Positions 1-24,498 of a stretch of DNA of 49,804 bases are shown piece by piece. Position numbers and translations under genes: made by a program. The notes beneath the pieces were generated by a model that had not been told where the DNA came from, searched no databases, and saw nothing but the letters and a program-made list of their open reading frames with translations. Source of the DNA: a virus (taxonomy: Duplodnaviria; Heunggongvirae; Uroviricota; Caudoviricetes). The stretch lies in IMG/VR virus record IMGVR_UViG_2579779034_000011, positions 1 to 49,804 of that record; one strand, 5' to 3'. Every line of letters starts with the position of its first letter. Within the stretch, counting starts at the first letter, position 1.

Positions 1-861
1 ATGGTTGACAATGTTTTTAAGAAGAAATTGGCATCAATTAAGAACGAACATGTGTCGGTGTTAGATAGTTACAAAGTAAGATCATTTAAAGAGACTCATA
101 GCGACACGGCCTGTATTGTGCGTATTATTGAAATATATTCACTGAATAAGCTGCGAGCTAAAGGTGAAAAGCTGTATTCACTTACGGGGTTAACAGTACC
201 TGATACGGAAACTGTGGCGAATGAGATCAACCTGCTCCTGAGCCGTTATGCCCAGTTGTGTCGTCAGGAAGAGGAAGAGTTATCTTTCCGGCAGCGTGAA
301 GTGACAAATGCGGAAGTTGCATGGAAAAGCACATTCTCAAAAAACGGCGTCAGTAGCATTGCTGAAGCCAAAACGAATAAAATGGGGCATGCTGAACGAG
401 CGGATGCTGAACGGTATTACCATCTGGCTGTTTCCCGGTTGAATGAACAACATAGTCGATTGAGCACGATCAAGCTTTTGCCGGGAGTACTGGCCGATGA
501 AGGAAACTACATTGGGAAGGGAATCGATAAGCGTTTACTGAATATATTTCCTCAATCCGGCCAGATCCCTGCTGATTTTATTTCTGTATTTAATGACAGT
601 GACGTTGTCCGTGATATTAAATTTATTACTGATGCACTCAAGTCTTTATCTGATTCCGTGAGTGAAATTATTAGTCGTTGTAGCGTTCCAACTGATCGTT
701 ATGTATTAAATAACGGTGGAATGGCAAGAGCTATGGCTTACAGGGAGTACTATCGAGCAGATAATTATGTATTACGTTCAGTCGTAAGTGACCGGGATTA
801 TGTTGAGCATGTAATGAAATACAATCTGGTTACTGAGTACAAAAATAAAATCTTTTCTTAA
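1..861 (+). CDS. hypothetical protein, possible scaffold-like partner of the downstream capsid gene (5' end may be cut by the window edge)
   Basis: 286-codon ORF beginning at window position 1; co-oriented with and 22 bp upstream of a P2-family capsid-like gene; no motif recognised. Confidence 0.45.
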   Translation: MVDNVFKKKLASIKNEHVSVLDSYKVRSFKETHSDTACIVRIIEIYSLNKLRAKGEKLYSLTGLTVPDTETVANEINLLLSRYAQLCRQEEEELSFRQREVTNAEVAWKSTFSKNGVSSIAEAKTNKMGHAERADAERYYHLAVSRLNEQHSRLSTIKLLPGVLADEGNYIGKGIDKRLLNIFPQSGQIPADFISVFNDSDVVRDIKFITDALKSLSDSVSEIISRCSVPTDRYVLNNGGMARAMAYREYYRADNYVLRSVVSDRDYVEHVMKYNLVTEYKNKIFS

Positions 862-883: not shown

Positions 884-1888
884 ATGTATGCCTTCAAAAC
901 TGAAAGGCCGGACGCAGCACGTCGTTATCATAATAAATTCGTCACTGGCACTAACTATCAGGAAGAATCAAACAGACGCTTTGCATTAAGCGAACCTACT
1001 GAAAATATACTGCGTACCTCAATTCTGGAATCCGGGTGGCTTATTAAAAATATTACCCTACGTGATGTTAACGCCGTGTCAGGTAATGCCGTCAATATTG
1101 GTGCCAGTGAACTGTATACCGGACGTGTGGATGGTGGCCGTTTCCACAAAAAAATGGCAATCAATGGTACGGAGTTCTTTCTGACAGAGACGGATACCTG
1201 CGCCCGGATCAGCTATTCCGATATGTCTCATATTTACCATACCGGCGTGCCGGATGAGTTTGAGAAAACGGTTGAGAGCTTTTTTGCCCAGGCATATGCG
1301 CTGGACATGCTGCGGGTCGGTTTCAACGGTGTGTCGATTGCAAATACTACAAACCCGGAAATCAATAAAAAAGGCGAGGATGTCAATATTGGCTGGCATG
1401 CACTGGCGAAAGCCTACGGGAACGGAAAGCAAATCATCTCTGAGCCTGTCACTCTGGGAGAGACTGGCACCTGGAAAAATATTGATGCTCTGGCCAACCA
1501 TCTGATTACAGAGCTTATTGCTGAGCAGTTTCGTGAAGATCCTCGTCTGGTTGTACTGGTTGGGGCAGAGCTGGCAGCACATCAACGCCTGAAGTTATTT
1601 AATGCCGCAGACCGCCCGTCTGATGTGAATGCGGCACAGATGGCTACAAGTTCTGTTGCTGGCCGCTTTGCGTTTATTCCCCCGTTTATGCCGGGTAAGC
1701 GTCTGGCAGTAACGACGCTGGATAATCTGCATATTTACACTCAGGCGATAACACGCTGGTTTCGTGCTGAGTTTGATGATGAAAGCAGTGAATACGTGCA
1801 TTCCTACCTGCGCAATGAAGGTTATGCACTCGGTGAACCTGAACTGTACGCGGCTGTTGATGAGTGCACCCTGACGTTTGCGGATTGA
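884..1888 (+). CDS. P2-family (gpN-like) major capsid protein
   Basis: 334 aa; blocks LDMLRVGFNGV, VNIGW, FREDPRLVVLVGAELAA, TLDNLHIYTQ and C-terminal YAAVDEC resemble P2 gpN as I recall it; RBS-like AAAGGTGAAAA upstream. Confidence 0.6.
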   Translation: MYAFKTERPDAARRYHNKFVTGTNYQEESNRRFALSEPTENILRTSILESGWLIKNITLRDVNAVSGNAVNIGASELYTGRVDGGRFHKKMAINGTEFFLTETDTCARISYSDMSHIYHTGVPDEFEKTVESFFAQAYALDMLRVGFNGVSIANTTNPEINKKGEDVNIGWHALAKAYGNGKQIISEPVTLGETGTWKNIDALANHLITELIAEQFREDPRLVVLVGAELAAHQRLKLFNAADRPSDVNAAQMATSSVAGRFAFIPPFMPGKRLAVTTLDNLHIYTQAITRWFRAEFDDESSEYVHSYLRNEGYALGEPELYAAVDECTLTFAD

Positions 1889-1901: not shown

Positions 1902-1923
1902 AGACCCGCTCAGAGGCGGGTCT
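1902..1923 (+). terminator. hairpin after the capsid-like gene (terminator-like)
   Basis: inverted repeat AGACCCGC/GCGGGTCT 14 bp after the stop codon, followed by a weak T tract. Confidence 0.4.
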
Positions 1924-2085
1924 CGTTTACAGCATCAGGAAAAATGAAGAACTATTTTTAAGCAGAGGCTTAAGCATGCCAGCGTTAATTAATCCAGGCA
2001 ATGATCAGTTTTCGGTTATAAATTTCTTGCCTCACCAGGAATGCGCGGGATATAGTTTAAAGGTTGCCGCAAAATCGGCAGCCGG

Positions 2086-2111
2086 GCGTAGGAACCCGTG
2101 TTATCTGAAGG
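2086..2111 (+). promoter_or_regulatory. seqA-like box of a P4-type RNA immunity leader
   Basis: GTAGGAAC...TCTGAAGG; both blocks are complementary to the box at 2262..2288 on the same strand. Confidence 0.4.
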
Positions 2112-2261
2112 CGATACTACACGCGCTAGGCGTGTTTTTTTGTGTCGCAGCTTTGACTCACCTAAAATTTATGGTGTGGTGGCTGATTGTATTTTTTTAT
2201 TTTTTACGCCACATCATCAGAATTATGGTAGTCCAGGCGGGGCAGCTTTCGGGCTGGCCGG

Positions 2262-2288
2262 TATCCTTCAGAGCCGGTATTCCTACCC
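2262..2288 (+). ncRNA. candidate CI-RNA-like immunity RNA core (seqB-like); RNA ends not determinable
   Basis: CCTTCAGA...TTCCTAC is the reverse complement of both blocks in the upstream and downstream boxes. Confidence 0.35.
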
Positions 2289-2310
2289 CCGTCTGGGCTA
2301 CCACCCATGA

Positions 2311-2351
2311 GCGTAGGAACTCCGGTGGTAGCGTTACCCGCTATCTGAAGG
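2311..2351 (+). promoter_or_regulatory. seqC-like box overlapping the RBS of the first gene of the primase operon
   Basis: GTAGGAAC...TCTGAAGG repeated; the TCTGAAGGAGG segment contains the Shine-Dalgarno of the ORF starting at 2363. Confidence 0.4.
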
Positions 2352-2362
2352 AGGTTGCCATT

Positions 2363-2566
2363 ATGGCTACAGTCCCTGCTTTATCTCACCCTGAATTTAC
2401 CTTTGTCTTTCTGGCTGTCCGCCGTACAGACCGTGATGCCCGTCCACGCCCTGTGCGTGTAATCGCAGAATGCGAGCATGCTGCACGCCTTAAACTTGCC
2501 ACTGAATTTATCCTGAGCTTTGCTGCCCGTATCCCTGTGAAAAGAGCCGGGGAGGTGGTTGCATGA
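2363..2566 (+). CDS. hypothetical protein (first gene of the primase operon)
   Basis: 67 aa; GGAGG 8 nt upstream of ATG; stop overlaps the next start (ATGA). Confidence 0.5.
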   Translation: MATVPALSHPEFTFVFLAVRRTDRDARPRPVRVIAECEHAARLKLATEFILSFAARIPVKRAGEVVA

Positions 2567-2799
2567 AATCCATGAATTTTAAGCAAGGCTGCATATTGAG
2601 TGAACAGGGGGAGAGTCGTCTGTTACGGGCGGCACTGGCCAGTGAGTTTCTTGCAGAGGTCTTGTCCGTGCCCACAGTGAATGGAGCGAGAACTGTTTCA
2701 GCGGAAGGCGCTGCGGCTTTAGTGGCCTGTATTGCCGAACAACTGGATGGCGTTGTTAAGGAAACCAGCACAATTAAGGGAGTGATGCGCGATGAATAA
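2563..2799 (+). CDS. hypothetical protein
   Basis: 78 aa; start and stop overlap the neighbouring genes (translational coupling). Confidence 0.55.
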   Translation: MKSMNFKQGCILSEQGESRLLRAALASEFLAEVLSVPTVNGARTVSAEGAAALVACIAEQLDGVVKETSTIKGVMRDE

Positions 2800-3202
2800 T
2801 AATCAAAATTTAAAGGCGCATGCTTTACGAACAGCAGTCTTACGCTACTACATTGCTGATGCATTCATTTCCTTAATGGTGCGTGTTCATAATGAACCTG
2901 TTTATATTGAAGATGGCGAACGAATAGAACTCTCCCACGAAAAAGTGGTGAGTAATATTATTTACCATATTGAAATGCCGTGGGTGAATGAGTTTGGGGC
3001 TGATGCTGGTTGCATACTGGCCGCAGAGAAACTGGAAAAAATGCTTAAACCAGGCTTTATGTCAGAAAATATTCGCCTGTCAGTTTTTGGTGTCACAGAG
3101 ATGCGTGAGGTTTACCGGGATATTATTTTCGGAGCACCTGATGGCGAACTACCCGAAGGTTTTGAATTTGTGAAGCCGGAAGGTCAGGAGGTGCTGCTGT
3201 GA
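2792..3202 (+). CDS. hypothetical protein
   Basis: 136 aa; 8-bp overlap upstream, 4-bp overlap with the primase start. Confidence 0.6.
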   Translation: MNNNQNLKAHALRTAVLRYYIADAFISLMVRVHNEPVYIEDGERIELSHEKVVSNIIYHIEMPWVNEFGADAGCILAAEKLEKMLKPGFMSENIRLSVFGVTEMREVYRDIIFGAPDGELPEGFEFVKPEGQEVLL

Positions 3203-5886
3203 AAACACCGTCTGTATCCACGATTTCCGGAGCTGCAATTGGGCGCTGGCCTTATATCCTGTCAGCATTAGGTATTAAAGTACCGTCCGCAGGACATCAT
3301 GGGGCTTGCCCTGCCTGTGGTGGAAAAGATCGTTTTCGACTGGACGATAAAGCGGGGCGAGGGACGTGGTTTTGTAATCAGTGCGGTCATGGCGATGGTC
3401 TTGATCTGGTTCGTCTGGTGACAGGAAGAAAGATAAAAGAAGTCGCCGGGATGGTATCTGAGGCGCTTGCATTACCAGAAATACAGGAGAAGCCCGCATT
3501 GCCAGCCAGGAAAAAGGCCGCAGGAAAAGAAGCGGGCGCGGAGCGATATACCAGACTCAGACAGCAGTCCTGCAATGGTGAGCCGGTCTATCTGACAAAT
3601 AAGAGCTTACACGGGTATTCACTTCCCTTGCTGTCACAGCCTTTGAATCTGGCCGGAATAACATTTTCCACCGGTTCATTACTGCTGCCTTTGACGGATA
3701 TTTCCGGGAATATTACTGGTGGCCAGCTTATCAATCCTGACGGGGATAAAAGTCTGCTGCCCGGTAGCCAGCTGTCTGGCGCATTCATTGCCCTGACCGA
3801 TATACCCGCTGAAACACCTGAACAGGTGATTATCACTGAGGGTTTTGCCACGGCGCTTACCGTCAGTCTGCTGACTGAAGGATGGATCGTGGCGGCTGTC
3901 GCTGCCACCAATTTACTGAAGGTGACGGAGCAGATCCGAAAACGCTGGCCGGAAACCCGGATCATTCTGGCCGGAGATAATGATCTGGCTGACGGCAAAG
4001 AAAACACCGGGCGTATTCAGGCAGAGAAAGCCGCCAAAGCGGTGGATGGCTGGGTAACGCTCCCTCCGGTACGCCATAAGGCTGACTGGGATGATTATCG
4101 GCAGGAAGTGGGGAAAGAACGGGCGAGAGATGCCTTTCGTGAAGAAATGACGCTGCATGGCAAAGGGCAGACCCGTTTACCAGAAGGGTTCCGGCTGACA
4201 AAAGAATATTTGTGGTACGACAAGCTGGTTAATAAGTCTGATGGTGATACAGAGATACGTAATATCAAAATTTGCAGTCCGTTGCGGGTGACGGCAATCA
4301 CCAGTGATGCTGATGGAAGTAATTACGGGCGTTTGCTGGAATGGGAAGATACCAACGGAAACAGCCGTAAATGGGCAATGCCGATGGAGATGCTGGGCGG
4401 TAGCGGGGAAGAACTGCGCCGCGTTCTGCTGGTTAACGGGCTTTCTTACATCAACATTAACGGCATGGCCAGAGCATTCCTGATGGAATATATCTCGCTG
4501 TGTAAACCGGACAGAAAAGTAACCTGTGTGAATAAAACTGGCTGGCACGGCGGGGTTTACGTTCTCCAGGATGAAGTGATAGGGCGCGAAGCCCAGTCAG
4601 TCATCTTACAAACATCGAGTGTGCAGGGGCGTGATTTTCGTGTCAGCGGCACATCAGAGGGCTGGCGTGAAAATATAGGCCGTTATTGCATAAAGAATGC
4701 CCGTCTTGCCTTTGCGGTGAGTCTGGCATTTGCTGCCCCCCTTCTGAAACTGGTTGGTATCGGCGGTGGAGGTTATCACCTCAAAGGGGAATCCACAGAC
4801 GGTAAAACCACGACGATGAAAGTGGCTGCATCAGTATGTGGTGGAACAGATTTCTGGCATACGTGGCGGGCGACGGGGAATGCCTTAGAAGGAACGGCGA
4901 GCCGCCGCAATGATGCCACGCTGATGCTGGATGAAATCCGGGAGGTTGACGGCAGGGAGGCGGGAAATATCGCTTATATGCTGGCTAACGGGCAGGGCAA
5001 AGCCAGAGCCAGAACAGATGGTTCGGTAAGGGAAACCAACCGCTGGAATCTGTTGTTTCTGTCTACCGGGGAACTGTCACTGGTAGAGCATGCGGCAAGC
5101 GCCGGGGAACGTACGTATGCCGGGGTTGAGGTCAGAATGATCCAGATCCCAAGCGATTCGGGCAAGTATGGCGTGTTTGAAGAACTTCATGGCTTCAGTA
5201 GCGGGAAAACCCTGGCTGAGCATCTTGAGCAGCACGTAGCGCATTATCATGGTGCACCATTCCGCGACTGGCTGTATTGCCTGACCGCTGATCTGCCGGA
5301 ACTGACCAGTCAGGCGAAAGCCTTATTGAAAGAGTATACCCGAAGGCTGACGCCGGAAAATGCCGGGAATCAGGTTGGCCGGGCTGTTACCCGTTTTGCT
5401 CTGGTTGCGATGGCCGGGGAGCTGGCCACAAAAGCGGGCATCACAGGATGGCCGGAGGGAGAGGCCTTTCGTGCCGCTCAAAGCTGTCTGGCTGCATGGA
5501 TGGCTGACCGGGGCCATACAGCTAATCAGGAAGATAAAGCGGCACTTGAACAGGTTCGGGACTTCATGACGCGTAATCAGTTCAGTCGGTTTGCTGACTG
5601 GAATGACGACAGGAACCGGCCTGTTTCAATGATGGGATTCAGAAAAGTCGATAAAGGAGACAACGTGACAGAGCCGGTTGTGACGTTCTACGTTCTCCCG
5701 TCAGGCTGGAAGGAGATCTGTAAGGGATTTGACTCGCGTAAGGTGGCCAGGTTGTGTGTGGACGCGGGCTGGCTGAAACCCGGTGAAGATGGCCGGACGC
5801 AAAACAGCATTCGCCTGCCAGAAATAGGGCTTAAACGTGTGTACCAGTTCAATACACAGGTACTGGGAAGCGCTGAACCTGAGTGA
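3199..5886 (+). CDS. P4 alpha-like primase-helicase (Zn ribbon + TOPRIM primase + P-loop NTPase)
   Basis: 895 aa; CPACGG...CNQCGH zinc ribbon; EGFATA primase motif; DND acidic motif; Walker A GESTDGKTT; Walker B LMLDEI. Confidence 0.85.
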   Translation: MKTPSVSTISGAAIGRWPYILSALGIKVPSAGHHGACPACGGKDRFRLDDKAGRGTWFCNQCGHGDGLDLVRLVTGRKIKEVAGMVSEALALPEIQEKPALPARKKAAGKEAGAERYTRLRQQSCNGEPVYLTNKSLHGYSLPLLSQPLNLAGITFSTGSLLLPLTDISGNITGGQLINPDGDKSLLPGSQLSGAFIALTDIPAETPEQVIITEGFATALTVSLLTEGWIVAAVAATNLLKVTEQIRKRWPETRIILAGDNDLADGKENTGRIQAEKAAKAVDGWVTLPPVRHKADWDDYRQEVGKERARDAFREEMTLHGKGQTRLPEGFRLTKEYLWYDKLVNKSDGDTEIRNIKICSPLRVTAITSDADGSNYGRLLEWEDTNGNSRKWAMPMEMLGGSGEELRRVLLVNGLSYININGMARAFLMEYISLCKPDRKVTCVNKTGWHGGVYVLQDEVIGREAQSVILQTSSVQGRDFRVSGTSEGWRENIGRYCIKNARLAFAVSLAFAAPLLKLVGIGGGGYHLKGESTDGKTTTMKVAASVCGGTDFWHTWRATGNALEGTASRRNDATLMLDEIREVDGREAGNIAYMLANGQGKARARTDGSVRETNRWNLLFLSTGELSLVEHAASAGERTYAGVEVRMIQIPSDSGKYGVFEELHGFSSGKTLAEHLEQHVAHYHGAPFRDWLYCLTADLPELTSQAKALLKEYTRRLTPENAGNQVGRAVTRFALVAMAGELATKAGITGWPEGEAFRAAQSCLAAWMADRGHTANQEDKAALEQVRDFMTRNQFSRFADWNDDRNRPVSMMGFRKVDKGDNVTEPVVTFYVLPSGWKEICKGFDSRKVARLCVDAGWLKPGEDGRTQNSIRLPEIGLKRVYQFNTQVLGSAEPE

Positions 5887-5911: not shown

Positions 5912-6105
5912 AGGTAACACTGGTAACAGAGGTAACACCCGTTACTGATGCGGTTCTTCAGTGTTACCAGTCAAAAATACTGACTGGTAACAGAGGTAAC
6001 AAAAAATGGTGTGTTACCACGCGTTACCTCTTGATTTTGCTAACTGGTAACAGATTAAATCCTTTTAAATCAATAGCGTTACACGTGTTACCAGTGTTAC
6101 ACGTT
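5912..6105. repeat. iteron array, probable origin of replication of the P4-like element
   Basis: about 12 copies of heptamer GGTAACA/TGTTACC in both orientations, including an 18-bp direct repeat CTGGTAACAGAGGTAACA twice; immediately downstream of the primase-helicase gene. Confidence 0.6.
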
Positions 6106-6168
6106 CAGAACAAGAGGTAGGGATCCAAATCCCTTCTTCTGGCGGGCAACAGTATAGGGCACAGAACG

Positions 6169-6441
6169 ATGAAGATGATGAGAATGTACTGCCCCACATG
6201 TCAGGCAGTAGCACGGATAGGTAAAACAAACAGGAAACACCCACAACTGTACGATGTGTACTGCTATTGCTCTAATGTGGAGTGCGGTCACTCGTTTGTG
6301 ATGAATGTTGCTTTCTCCCATTCCGTTAGTCCAAGCGCGCTGAACGGGCAGGGAAGGGTTAAAGAGCTGATTGATGCAATTCCACCCGAGGAACGGGAAA
6401 AGGCTTTAAAGTTGCTGCTGGCTGCGCAAAAGAATGGGTAA
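6169..6441 (+). CDS. Ogr/Delta-family zinc-finger late-gene activator (start may be an internal Met at 6178 or 6187)
   Basis: C-x2-C-x22-C-x4-C spacing (CPTC ... CSNVEC) matching P2 Ogr CPLC ... CQNVNC. Confidence 0.65.
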   Translation: MKMMRMYCPTCQAVARIGKTNRKHPQLYDVYCYCSNVECGHSFVMNVAFSHSVSPSALNGQGRVKELIDAIPPEEREKALKLLLAAQKNG

Positions 6442-7120: not shown

Positions 7121-8002
7121 ATGAGTCATAATAAAAAGGAATATGCTAAATTTTTCCGTCGCCCCATTTTTTCATCCTTAGCAAAAGGTAAGGATATTTC
7201 GGATTTATTTGGGAGTTTTGATTCTTACTGCTATGAAACACTGTTTTCAAACAATGATAATAATGAACATGAGATTTCACTAAGGGATTTATTTACATCA
7301 TTATATGATTTTTTGCGTCTGAATTATAGAAATGAATATGTTTATAAGACAGCACTTGTCAATAAAATAATATTCGGTAAGCACAGCCCAAAAACAAGTT
7401 CGTCGTCCATAGAGTTACCAATTAAAAACTCTATAGTGGATGTTGCGGTGTTTAATGGTACGTCTACAGCTTACGAGATTAAGACAGAGTATGATTCACC
7501 AAAAAGGTTGATTACTCAAGCCCCTGATTATTTGGATGTTTTTGATAAAGTGTATATAGTTACACATCCAGAGTATGCAAGTAAATATTGTGCTTTAAAT
7601 CTCCCCAGAGTGGGAGTTATGGTTTTGAATAAAAAAGATCAATTGAGTGTCATTAAGGAGGCAGATTCAAATATTGATTATATTAAAAGTGACAGCTTGT
7701 TTTCAGTTCTTAGAAAGGAAGAGTTCTTAGCTATAATAGAAGATTACACTTCAACTAAAATAAATATGCCTAACGGATTGGTTTATGAATATTGTAAAGA
7801 GATATTCATGCAGATGCCATTAAACATAGCAAATAAATACTTTATCTCTGCTATGAAAAAAAGATGTAACGATAAAGTTTTTTTGGATTATATTTATTCT
7901 CTTCCAGCATGTTTACGTGTTTTAGGTTATGCAACACCATTATCAAGAAAGCAAAAAGAATTCATCATGAATTTGATGGATGTAAAAATTAAAATTTGTT
8001 GA
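7121..8002 (+). CDS. hypothetical protein, AT-rich cargo gene A; PD-(D/E)xK nuclease-like motif
   Basis: 293 aa; strongly AT-rich relative to flanks; acidic/Lys pattern E72 ... D107 (IVDVAVF) ... E119-I-K121 (AYEIKTE). Confidence 0.6.
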   Translation: MSHNKKEYAKFFRRPIFSSLAKGKDISDLFGSFDSYCYETLFSNNDNNEHEISLRDLFTSLYDFLRLNYRNEYVYKTALVNKIIFGKHSPKTSSSSIELPIKNSIVDVAVFNGTSTAYEIKTEYDSPKRLITQAPDYLDVFDKVYIVTHPEYASKYCALNLPRVGVMVLNKKDQLSVIKEADSNIDYIKSDSLFSVLRKEEFLAIIEDYTSTKINMPNGLVYEYCKEIFMQMPLNIANKYFISAMKKRCNDKVFLDYIYSLPACLRVLGYATPLSRKQKEFIMNLMDVKIKIC

Positions 8003-8023: not shown

Positions 8024-8974
8024 ATGTATAGCCCATATTTGTATGCGAGAAGTACAGAGTTATTATGCCTTAGGGACCTCGTTGCGAAGGGAGTTAGCCT
8101 AAATGGTCTGCTACCAATTTTAGAACCAATTAACGTCAATACGAGAAATTTATTAACATGTTTAAATGTTTGGAATTCTGACATAATTGTTATCCTTAAT
8201 CCTTATCAGGAAGATTTTTCTTCACACAATAACGTCTTAACTTTAAATCAAAATTTATCAAGTGTATTAACAAATAAAAATAATATCATCTCTGGATATC
8301 TTATTCAGCCCAATACAACGATTAATGATATTAATAATTGGTTGAATGCTAACTTAAATAGACGAGTTGCACTTCTATATGATAATCCATCATTATCCAA
8401 CTCTGATATTCAGTTGTTGGCGACAAATCAATTGATTAGTTATCATGTTGTTTTAAATAATAAAATGCTTCCTAATCAGTGCGCTCTTCTTCCTTTGTCG
8501 AAGTTAATTATTATTAGCGATAACTTTAGAAAGTTAGCAAAAAATGCTGATTATAATGGGCCGGAACTTTTCACGCACGCACATCAATTCGTGGGACAAA
8601 ATTACTTAGGATTTGGCGATTATACAATTACTGGCCAGGTACTAGATCTTGGAGGTGGTCAACCTTCTGCTGTTGCCGCACATTTGGTGTTCAAGAATTT
8701 ACAAGCGAATACAGTTTGGATTCGTCATTTTGTATCAAGCAACACGCAACGAGGAAGTTCAAATGTTACTGCAAAATTTTTAGATGTTTCAGATCAAATT
8801 ACAAATCTTGTTCCCCAACATCCAACCCAGTTTGGCAGCAACATTGGTCTTAACTATTATTATTACAATAGTCAACCAACTGTAAGGCATTTCCCTGGGT
8901 TGCCAAAAAACAAACAGTATCAAATTACTCACCATATTTGTTTCATGCTGGATTTAATAGCAGGTCGTATTTAA
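8024..8974 (+). CDS. hypothetical protein, AT-rich cargo gene B
   Basis: 316 aa; 21 bp downstream of gene A, same strand and composition; last 7 codons overlap the integrase 3' end on the opposite strand; no motif recognised. Confidence 0.6.
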   Translation: MYSPYLYARSTELLCLRDLVAKGVSLNGLLPILEPINVNTRNLLTCLNVWNSDIIVILNPYQEDFSSHNNVLTLNQNLSSVLTNKNNIISGYLIQPNTTINDINNWLNANLNRRVALLYDNPSLSNSDIQLLATNQLISYHVVLNNKMLPNQCALLPLSKLIIISDNFRKLAKNADYNGPELFTHAHQFVGQNYLGFGDYTITGQVLDLGGGQPSAVAAHLVFKNLQANTVWIRHFVSSNTQRGSSNVTAKFLDVSDQITNLVPQHPTQFGSNIGLNYYYYNSQPTVRHFPGLPKNKQYQITHHICFMLDLIAGRI

Positions 8975-10129: not shown

Positions 10130-10377
10130 GTGTATAGAAAAAAGATCGAACTCAGTTATACACAATGTTATACGCAAAGATGTATAGATTCCATTAGAAA
10201 TAATGGTACTTTGCTGGACGAGTATAAGGAGATGATATCAGTTAAAACAGTGAGTTATGGAATTAATTGAACTTAGTGAGAAGTGTTCATGGTGTCCCCT
10301 GCAGACATCTACTTCAAGCGGCAGGGGATTGATTGGAATGGTGTTTTTTAGATGTGAAAAATATTTTACCCGCTATT

Positions 10378-24342: not shown

Positions 24343-24417
24343 GGGTCAGTCGTATAAAGGTCATTACGGAAGGCTGTTAACCTTCTTATCGTGGTTCGAG
24401 TCCACGCTGTCCCGCCA
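24343..24417 (+). tRNA. tRNA-Asn-like (anticodon GUU), possibly degenerate
   Basis: hand-folded cloverleaf: perfect anticodon stem GAAGG/CCTTC with loop CTGTTAA, perfect T arm CGTGG-TTCGAGT-CCACG, 3' CCA; one mismatch each in acceptor and D stems. Confidence 0.55.
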
Positions 24418-24422
24418 AATAT

Positions 24423-24498
24423 GCTGGTTTAGCTCCAATGGTAGAGCAGTCGCCTTGTAAGCGAATGGGTAGCGGTTCAAGTCCGTTAACCAGCACCA
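24423..24498 (+). tRNA. tRNA-Thr (anticodon UGU)
   Basis: hand-folded cloverleaf: 7-bp acceptor GCTGGTT/AACCAGC, D stem GCTC/GAGC, anticodon loop CTTGTAA, T loop TTCAAGT, 3' ACCA. Confidence 0.7.

Follow-up and report, generated by a model that had tools for sequence, protein, structure and literature searches.

The DNA analysed here, called the window throughout, is a stretch of 49,804 nucleotides. The part of it examined here is 100% identical to E. coli chromosomes and is matched by 423 complete-genome records at an identity of at least 99%. In strain SK1144 (NZ_AP018784.2, with this locus at 1,506,974-1,507,564) the element is flanked by dsdC and tRNA-Arg, and its gene order is an alpA-like gene, a gene for a 286-amino acid protein that has no match in Pfam, PHROGs, or the PDB sequences, a P2-family capsid gene, the putative immunity region described here, two small genes, the primase gene, an ogr/delta-like gene, genes of the sce7726/sce7725 families, and an integrase gene. 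From the end of the capsid gene through the primase gene, the following features were read on the plus strand, in window coordinates.

1903..1922, plus strand: G+C-rich hairpin after the capsid gene, lacking a good T-run; read from the sequence
1976..2566, plus strand: eta-like ORF of 196 codons, from the ORF list, with GAGG upstream at 1965-1968
2027..2056, plus strand: predicted PLE-like constitutive promoter, with -35 TTGCCT (2027-2032), an 18-nt spacer, and -10 TATAGT (2051-2056)
2063..2141, plus strand: IsrK-like leader RNA, from the Rfam isrK model, hairpins, and an intrinsic terminator
2086..2111, plus strand: seqA (box A), with the b-box GTAGGAA at 2088-2094 and the a-box TCTGAAGG at 2104-2111
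2226..2304, plus strand: predicted mature CI (C4-family) RNA of about 79 nt, from the Rfam C4 model, fold, and covariation
2264..2286, plus strand: seqB (box B), with the loop element (U)CCUUCAGA at 2264-2272 and the single-stranded UUCCUAC at 2280-2286
2297..2332, plus strand: conserved alternative hairpin, from a 9/9 inverted repeat and covariation
2311..2352, plus strand: seqC (box C), with the b-box GTAGGAA at 2313-2319 and the a-box TCTGAAGG(A) at 2344-2352
2363..2566, plus strand: kil/Icd-like gene of 67 codons, an ORF matching phrog_1743 (E 3.3e-21)
2563..5886, plus strand: the operon under the proposed control, encoding a 78-amino acid protein, a 136-amino acid protein, and an 895-amino acid primase

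The RefSeq label for the full 196-codon ORF is "Icd-like protein" in hundreds of E. coli genomes, with no RNA gene listed there. The kil/Icd-like gene lies within the eta frame; on transcripts from the leader promoter it is the first to be translated, and it stands at the head of the primase operon, whose primase contains a zinc ribbon, a Toprim domain, and DUF927 and is 38% identical over its N-terminal third to amino acids 4-311 of P4 alpha. Among the downstream genes, Pfam and PHROGs gave no match to an antirepressor (ANT) family. The seqC a-box (2344-2351/2) overlaps the Shine-Dalgarno sequence GGAGG (2350-2354) that precedes the kil ATG at 2363; the preliminary description of this DNA had pointed to this overlap, which is seen between TCTGAAGG at 2344-2351 and GGAGG, and in the genome set described below the seqC a-box abuts the Shine-Dalgarno sequence and start codon in 78 of 96 independent loci. 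At the start of kil lies a C-rich, G-poor tract (C>G skew of -0.23 over 2360-2460), which is compatible with, and weakly suggestive of, a Rho loading site.

The composite GTAGGAAC…TCTGAAGG is present twice on the plus strand, at 2088-2111 and 2313-2351, and there are two direct repeats, GCGTAGGAAC, located by repeat search and string search at 2086-2095 and 2311-2320, and TATCTGAAGG, with copies at 2102-2111 and 2342-2351. The middle box carries the antisense of both blocks: TCTGAAGG at 2104-2111 and CCTTCAGA at 2265-2272 form an inverted repeat of 8/8, TCCTTCAGA at 2264-2272 and TCTGAAGGA at 2344-2352 form one of 9/9, and GTAGGAA at 2088-2094 and 2313-2319 is complementary to TTCCTAC at 2280-2286 in 7/7 positions. 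The earlier claim that the flanking boxes share both blocks, and that the middle box is their reverse complement, therefore stands with its coordinates, and the pairing-energy check that went with it agrees. The predicted duplex energy of the middle box is -27.6 kcal/mol with box A and -31.3 kcal/mol with box C, far below the means for shuffled targets (-14.9 for A and -16.7 for C, with a standard deviation of about 3.2); the real duplexes are about 4 standard deviations better, and only 2 (box A) and 1 (box C) per 2000 shuffles equal them. A chance origin of the boxes was rejected, with the pattern GTAGGAACN{5,30}TCTGAAGG matching twice over both strands of the 49.8-kb window against 0.00 matches expected from 100 dinucleotide-preserving shuffles. 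An extra site complementary to seqB at about 476-510 (-31 kcal/mol) was dropped, as its energy is within the range expected for 20,000 scanned windows.

An Rfam scan of the whole window returned only C4, isrK, and two tRNAs above the gathering score, and the C4 and isrK families correspond to the CI RNA and seqA of P4 (PMC3632133, PMC10111431). The isrK match (RF01394) runs from 2063 to 2140 with 68.9 bits against a threshold of 50, takes in the full length of the model (1-77), and covers the upstream box; the c4-a1b1 model on the same stretch scores 43.8 bits, just under its threshold of 46.7. Within this leader RNA there is a hairpin at 2063-2082, a second hairpin at 2083-2098 whose loop holds the b-box, then an a-box that is single-stranded, and a terminator at 2119-2141, the last called by the terminator scan as a hairpin at 2119-2135 followed by a T-run to 2141. 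The fold energy of the leader alone (2063-2141) is no better than that of shuffles (z -0.90) and carries no weight here. In 31 relatives the leader hairpins and the terminator are 94.6-100% paired, with hairpin 1 covarying at 5/7 of its pairs. The predicted promoter upstream, a 9/12 match in the promoter scan for TTGCCT-18-TATAGT, lies inside the 1976-2566 ORF; its -10 hexamer lines up, position by position, with the "consensus -10 sequence" of P4 record X02534 and is kept in those relatives whose sequence reaches that far. Because a conserved intrinsic terminator stands between the promoter and CI, production of CI would require read-through.

The C4 antisense RNA match is at 2221-2308 on the plus strand, contains the middle box, and scores 81.1 bits against a threshold of 45. 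The structure has a 17-bp outer stem (2226-2242/2287-2303), a hairpin at 2243-2256, and a hairpin at 2257-2278 that presents the first part of seqB in its loop. Its fold over 2226-2304 has a minimum free energy of -47.7 kcal/mol (z -5.43), and in the 31 relatives 100% of cells are paired and 6 pairs are doubly changed, a result reached by 0 of 500 shuffles. The Rfam consensus structure leaves both seqB elements unpaired, one in the hairpin loop and the other in the stretch before the closing stem; the single-sequence minimum free energy fold puts two extra pairs inside the seqB loop and leaves it only partly unpaired. The ends of the RNA at 2226 and 2304 were placed by P4 and P1 precedent and are probable rather than mapped positions; the shape at this place, a 17-bp stem followed by CCCA, is substrate-like.

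A second structure competes with this one. The 3' strand of the CI stem, GCUACCACC at 2297-2305, is fully complementary to GGUGGUAGC at 2324-2332 within seqC, and the helix that they form encloses a 3-bp stem (2309-2311/2320-2322) and holds the seqC b-box in its loop, like the seqA hairpin. This alternative helix excludes the full outer stem of CI. In the 31 representatives it is 99.3% paired and has four covarying pairs, at two of which the 5' strand of CI tolerates the change by G-U wobble and the downstream partner keeps a Watson-Crick pair. In the minimum free energy fold of the whole leader (2063-2380), seqA pairs with seqB in cis and the CI fold is broken, and with predicted folds of this kind cis and trans action are inseparable by computation.

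The best phage match of the region by blastn is the P4 cI region, with 70.9% identity over 396 nt (window 2048-2443, E 4e-49), and the P4 "cI ORF" is found by tblastn with 58% identity at window 2225-2539 (E 2e-33). Features annotated in X02534 fall where they would be expected, the -10 hexamer on the window TATAGT at 2051-2056 and the 76-nt dyad symmetry on the CI stem-loop. The preliminary description had proposed a seqA/seqB/seqC arrangement like that of P4 in the leader of the primase operon, and homology, the RNA-family models, and covariation all back it; the alignment with P4 that it suggested also finds the boxes changed together. Where the window has TAGGAA/TTCCTA, P4 has TGAGAA/TTCTCA, and where the window has TCTGAAGG/CCTTCAGA, P4 has TTCACAGG/CCTGTGAA, with the change made in seqA, seqB, and seqC alike. 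The predicted energies of the window seqB on the P4 targets are -11.1 and -17.0 kcal/mol, compared with -27.6 and -31.3 kcal/mol on its own, and those of the P4 seqB on P4 targets are -28.7 and -32.4 kcal/mol; overall, non-cognate pairings range from -11 to -19 kcal/mol and cognate pairings from -28 to -32 kcal/mol. Heteroimmunity towards P4 is predicted, since the pairing code of the element (of the TTCAGA/CCTA class) is a different one.

All parts have the order and strand that they have in P4, from the promoter -10 through the downstream primase operon. Also shared are the seqA hairpins, an intrinsic terminator, a CI RNA (here predicted from sequence) that is about 79 nt long, closed by a 17-bp stem, and exposes two elements, and a seqC that lies over the Shine-Dalgarno sequence of a kil gene of 65-67 codons nested in a long ORF begun upstream of the promoter. 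The spacer between the terminator and CI, however, is 27 nt shorter here, with the kil ATG 280 nt from seqA as against 307 nt in P4; eta follows the capsid gene and a hairpin, whereas in P4 it overlaps the vis/alpA homologue; and the window primase has a DUF927-type C-terminal part. P4-like satellites have been given a core set of int, psu, delta, sid, alpA, epsilon, and alpha (PMC8628076). When P4 proteins were searched against the window with tblastn, int, vis/alpA, the cI ORF, the N-terminal part of alpha, and part of cII were found, and sid, psu, epsilon, and delta gave no match at E 0.01; P4 epsilon, orf151, sid, and psu are absent from the window, and an Ogr/Delta zinc finger is present by Pfam. 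By every feature testable from sequence, the element belongs to the P4-type CI/seqA/seqC immunity family.

Relatives were retrieved with a pattern that fixed only the conserved CI hairpin and left both seqB elements free, which gave 120 loci from IMG/VR (98 unique) and 102 loci from one-genome-per-species contigs, mostly of Enterobacterales (96 unique), and one representative per code was taken for a covariation alignment of 31 sequences. The two seqB elements occur in 31 combinations in IMG/VR and in 39 in the one-genome-per-species set. Of the 98 unique IMG/VR loci, 86 have upstream, and 87 downstream, exact Watson-Crick matches to the two elements in the correct order, compared with 0.08 (upstream) and 0.0 (downstream) when codes were swapped between loci; in the one-genome-per-species set the counts are 75/96 upstream and 78/96 downstream, with 0 for swapped codes. 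In the alignment, 98.9% of seqA-seqB cells are paired, with 9/15 pairs changed on both sides and 112 doubly changed cells, and 98.0% of seqB-seqC cells are paired, with 9/16 pairs doubly changed and 109 doubly changed cells. For neither helix did any of 500 shuffles reach the covariation score or the paired percentage, and slid controls were 35-57% paired over both helix sets (42-53% for seqA-seqB). Loss of complementarity in relatives had been named beforehand as the observation that would speak against RNA pairing, and the opposite is seen, with boxes that vary and a complementarity that is kept, as expected of an RNA-RNA contact that determines specificity. One and the same loop sequence can be combined with as many as three different second elements, which suggests that the seqB elements may assort as separate modules and may make up a combinatorial immunity code among enterobacterial satellites.

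The long ORF begins 51 nt upstream of the -35 hexamer, spans seqA, the terminator, CI, and seqC, and ends in kil, and Pfam matches Phage_ASH (PF10554) to amino acids 26-141 of its 196 codons (E 3.1e-32). Traced upstream from kil, the frame stays free of stops across seqC, CI, the terminator, and seqA in 89 of 95 unique relatives, compared with 0 and 6 for the other two frames. Relatives place seqA at 13 different distances from the kil ATG, with 94/102 of them in one mod-3 class and indels in multiples of three. There is no excess of third-codon-position diversity upstream of 2363, where it is flat (for example 0.40/0.47/0.43 in the spacer), and in kil it is that of a typical coding sequence (0.25/0.23/0.45). 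The preliminary description had held that the ORF at 1976..2566 is probably non-coding except for its last 67 codons; the flat diversity upstream of 2363 is in keeping with this as far as the peptide is concerned, but the frame has been kept open and the ORF is the counterpart of P4 eta, which leaves that part of the claim to be amended. Selection thus appears, from the pattern of substitutions and indels, to act on translation of the eta frame and not on its peptide, and a frame that is open while its peptide is unconserved fits a role for the act of translation itself. The preserved frame also explains why Pfam has a Phage_ASH family and why RefSeq came to its label for the whole ORF.

P4 eta is described as starting upstream of the constitutive promoter and ending as kil, with the constitutive transcript yielding kil alone (Forti et al. 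1999 in PMC10111431); according to the same account, only on transcripts coming from a late promoter farther upstream is the whole of eta translated, and this translation prevents termination (PMC10111431). The hairpin at 1903-1922, which was not called by the terminator scan, is possibly a leaky terminator between the upstream operon and eta. A late promoter adjoining eta was not found by the promoter scan or by a search for TGT-N12-ACA. Sites of the latter form, that of Ogr/Delta-type late promoters, number 6 in the window against 6.3 expected and are not above chance; two of them stand before operons and none adjoins eta.

We conclude that the region is very probably the immunity region of a P4-related, satellite-like element at tRNA-Arg of E. 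coli, a homologue of that of P4 with a pairing code of its own. The parts and their order, the homology, the conserved complementarity of the three boxes, a seqC that runs into the ribosome-binding site, and the conserved open frame are observed directly; the start of the leader, its processing by RNase P, the action of CI, and Rho-dependent termination would follow by analogy with P4, P1, and Gifsy-1, for which elements of the mechanism are described in PMC4825925, PMC3632133, PMC10111431, and PMC5499578. In the proposed mechanism, the constitutive promoter (-10 at 2051-2056) would start the leader at about 2063, and some transcripts would stop at the terminator at 2119-2141 to give an IsrK-like RNA of about 78 nt carrying seqA. 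RNase P would cleave transcripts that read through at the base of the 17-bp stem, and trimming would leave a stable product of about 79 nt (2226-2304), in the way reported for P4 and P1, where the 5' end of CI/c4 is made by RNase P on a tRNA-acceptor-like stem and the 3' end by exonucleolytic trimming (PMC5499578). The CI RNA would expose CCUUCAGA in its hairpin loop and UUCCUAC in a single-stranded stretch, and both elements would pair with GUAGGAA…UCUGAAGG in the seqA and seqC of nascent leaders. Pairing at seqC would cover the kil Shine-Dalgarno sequence (2350-2354) and block kil translation, and the untranslated RNA would be terminated prematurely, before the primase genes; in P4 the premature termination is reported as Rho-dependent, with CI pairing to seqA and seqC (PMC4825925). 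The primase operon would stay off both in a resident element and in an incoming element of the same code. Transcripts arriving from upstream would carry the eta start (1976), and ribosomes that move across seqA, the terminator, CI, and seqC would render them insensitive to immunity.

Several other readings of the same parts were considered. One is positive control as in Gifsy-1, in which the terminated seqA RNA would act in trans, on CI RNA or on transcripts that read through, as an activator or sponge and not just as a further target, pairing with seqB and freeing the ribosome-binding site of kil; we regard this as improbable, and it could coexist with the P4 mechanism. It draws on the end-to-end match of the isrK model, terminator included, on the conservation of the terminator and hairpins, and on the pairing code common to seqA and seqC, which puts free seqA RNA in competition with seqC for seqB. 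The mechanism has been shown for Gifsy-1 (PMC4825925), and IsrK-like elements of P4-like prophages were required in S. Typhi by TraDIS (PMC3632133). Like Gifsy-1 IsrK/STnc1160, the window is predicted to have an IsrK-type leader RNA of about 77 nt that ends at a Rho-independent terminator with partial read-through, and a processed stable RNA downstream whose complementarity is shared with IsrK. In Gifsy-1, however, what the short RNA turns on is translation of orf45-anrP, which results in AntQ and growth arrest, and those genes are absent here, where kil and the primase gene lie downstream instead; the seqA of P4, for its part, is described as a target needed for termination and not as an activator. 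It is very unlikely that the cassette works as c4-icd-ant does in P1 and P7, with an RNA that blocks icd translation, keeps an antirepressor silent, and controls prophage induction and not replication. The two systems belong to the same Rfam family and clan (C4, c4-a1b1), share recognition by a two-element antisense RNA, a downstream target that covers the ribosome-binding site of the Icd-like first gene, and RNase P processing of a precursor (here by analogy), and the C4 cassettes of Stx phages and RCS47 adjoin antirepressor genes. But P1 controls an antirepressor, and here it is a replication operon that would be controlled: downstream there are two small ORFs and then the primase gene, with no homologue of ant or of an antirepressor, the nearest DNA relative is P4 (70.9% over 396 nt), and c4-a1b1 is under threshold. 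A P1-type c4-icd-ant module was accordingly rejected, as no antirepressor follows.

A switch acting purely in cis, in which A-B and B-C helices of the leader would set kil translation with no stable RNA acting in trans, would account for the seqA-seqB pairing in the minimum free energy fold of 2063-2380 and for the conserved helix (2297-2305/2324-2332) that competes with the CI stem. It is extremely unlikely in view of the character of CI as an independent domain, with a strong z-score, full covariation, and an RNase P-type stem; a processed stable RNA has been observed in P4, P1, and Gifsy-1, and superinfection immunity needs action in trans. That the repeats reflect a conserved protein (Ash/Eta, PF10554), or chance, and not RNA pairing, is a possibility to which we give next to no weight, despite the match of the translation to Phage_ASH (E 3.1e-32) and the conservation of the ORF as an open frame. 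The third-codon-position excess that is clear in kil is missing upstream of 2363, and this flat codon-position diversity led to the rejection of protein repeats as the origin of the boxes; compensatory changes in the boxes extend over three sites, and the pattern expectation of 0.00 speaks against chance. Returning to the P4-type reading, it is a tentative and rather doubtful suggestion that the element is more than a copy of P4, one that joins a combinatorial code, an eta "ribosome track," and a switch at helix 2297-2305/2324-2332. The eta frame would then be a pure "ribosome track," by which transcripts of the element's own capsid operon would override immunity, and the helix could decide the fate of read-through RNA, between mature CI RNA and a presented seqC. 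We found no earlier description in the literature of assorting seqB elements or of the competing helix.

RNA immunity of this kind has been known since the 1990s for P4 and P1, and the region is a known kind of system, correctly identified, in an uncharacterised heteroimmune relative of P4. It is already modelled in Rfam, and matches to C4 and isrK have been reported in PICI-like satellites (PMC10111431). In the Bro zones of Gram-negative and helper-embedded PICIs, as here, these matches lie inside a Phage_ASH ORF between alpA-like and primase genes in an integrative satellite of about 11 kb (PMC10111431); the element in the window differs in its position at tRNA-Arg and in its P2-family capsid gene, and PMC10111431 lists the matches without an analysis of the pairing code. 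The locus exemplifies how a protein annotation can hide an RNA regulator. One cassette serves both the classic sid/psu P4-like elements and a lineage with its own P2-family capsid gene, and its pairing code, highly variable and always matched at three sites, opens the way to sequence-based prediction of which satellites exclude one another.

The entire 196-codon open reading frame at 1976-2566, the counterpart of eta, carries the RefSeq (PGAP) label 'host cell division inhibitor Icd-like protein', and an ncRNA annotation is absent from RefSeq (PGAP) over the same interval. The match of this frame to Pfam PF10554 (Phage_ASH) covers amino acids 26-141, which is the translated stretch from seqA through seqC, and the protein-family signal over this region is largely an RNA signal. 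The 3' strand of the CI stem can also pair with the seqC spacer in a conserved, covarying 9-bp helix (2297-2305/2324-2332) that is mutually exclusive with the CI outer stem and that encloses the seqC b-box in its loop.

The nesting of kil within eta may be arranged differently in one subgroup, a minority of the relatives (loci L003, L012, L028, L038, L063, L064, and L102), where the upstream long open frame is not in the frame of the kil ATG, taken here as the start called in this analysis. The distance from seqA to this ATG is 249 or 252 nt in the subgroup, several members of which have a kil of 81 or 98 codons.

The features of the window and of locus L002 that bear on the remainder of the element and on its neighbor are as follows.

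Window 1-861: gene for a 286-aa protein
Window 884-1888: gene for a divergent major capsid protein of the P2 family (PF05125, E 9.5e-67; P2 gpN 7jw1, E 2.7e-16)
Window 6095-6112: TGT-N12-ACA motif, a type recognised by Ogr/Delta activators, 56 nt upstream of an ogr/delta-like gene (6169-6441)
Window 7121-8002: gene of the RefSeq sce7726 family, low in G+C and beside the integrase
Window 8024-8974: gene of the RefSeq sce7725 family, likewise low in G+C and beside the integrase
Window 24343-24498: tRNA-Asn and tRNA-Thr genes, within the P22-like prophage
L002 9784-9801 (outside the window): TGT-N12-ACA motif of the same kind, 55 nt upstream of an alpA-like gene

After the integrase, the window has only about 15 nt of the tRNA-Arg 3' end (10290-10304), and strain SK1144, an example carrier, has a full tRNA-Arg at the corresponding site. 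The remainder of the window, 10305-49804, is a P22-like prophage, whose terminase-portal-coat region shares ~98% identity with that of Escherichia phages IME10, HZ41, and APC_JM3.2. The same attachment site therefore holds the satellite and, in tandem with it, a non-P2 prophage. The pair of genes beside the integrase takes the same position as the gop-beta-cII defence hotspot of P4; the protein encoded at 7121-8002 shares 39% identity with a portion of P4 cII, which likewise belongs to the sce7726 family.

The alpA-like gene of L002 is the first gene of the capsid operon. TGT-N12-ACA motifs are overall no commoner than expected by chance (6 seen versus 6.3 expected). Close to the element's left boundary, on its inner side, a run of ~11 CCCAG pentanucleotide repeats (L002 9521-9575, outside the window) lies between the alpA-like gene and the copy of the tRNA end at the left attachment site (L002 9384-9400).

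Where P4 has sid and psu, the element has the 286-aa protein, which has no match in Pfam, PHROG or PDB sequences, followed by the P2-family capsid gene. Of 222 loci sharing the CI cassette, 27 carry this capsid gene, and neither P4 sid nor P4 psu occurs in any of the 27. The gene is accompanied by those for the 286-aa, 78-aa and 136-aa proteins and the DUF927 primase. The capsid-bearing elements look like a satellite lineage with its own capsid protein in place of a size-determining scaffold.
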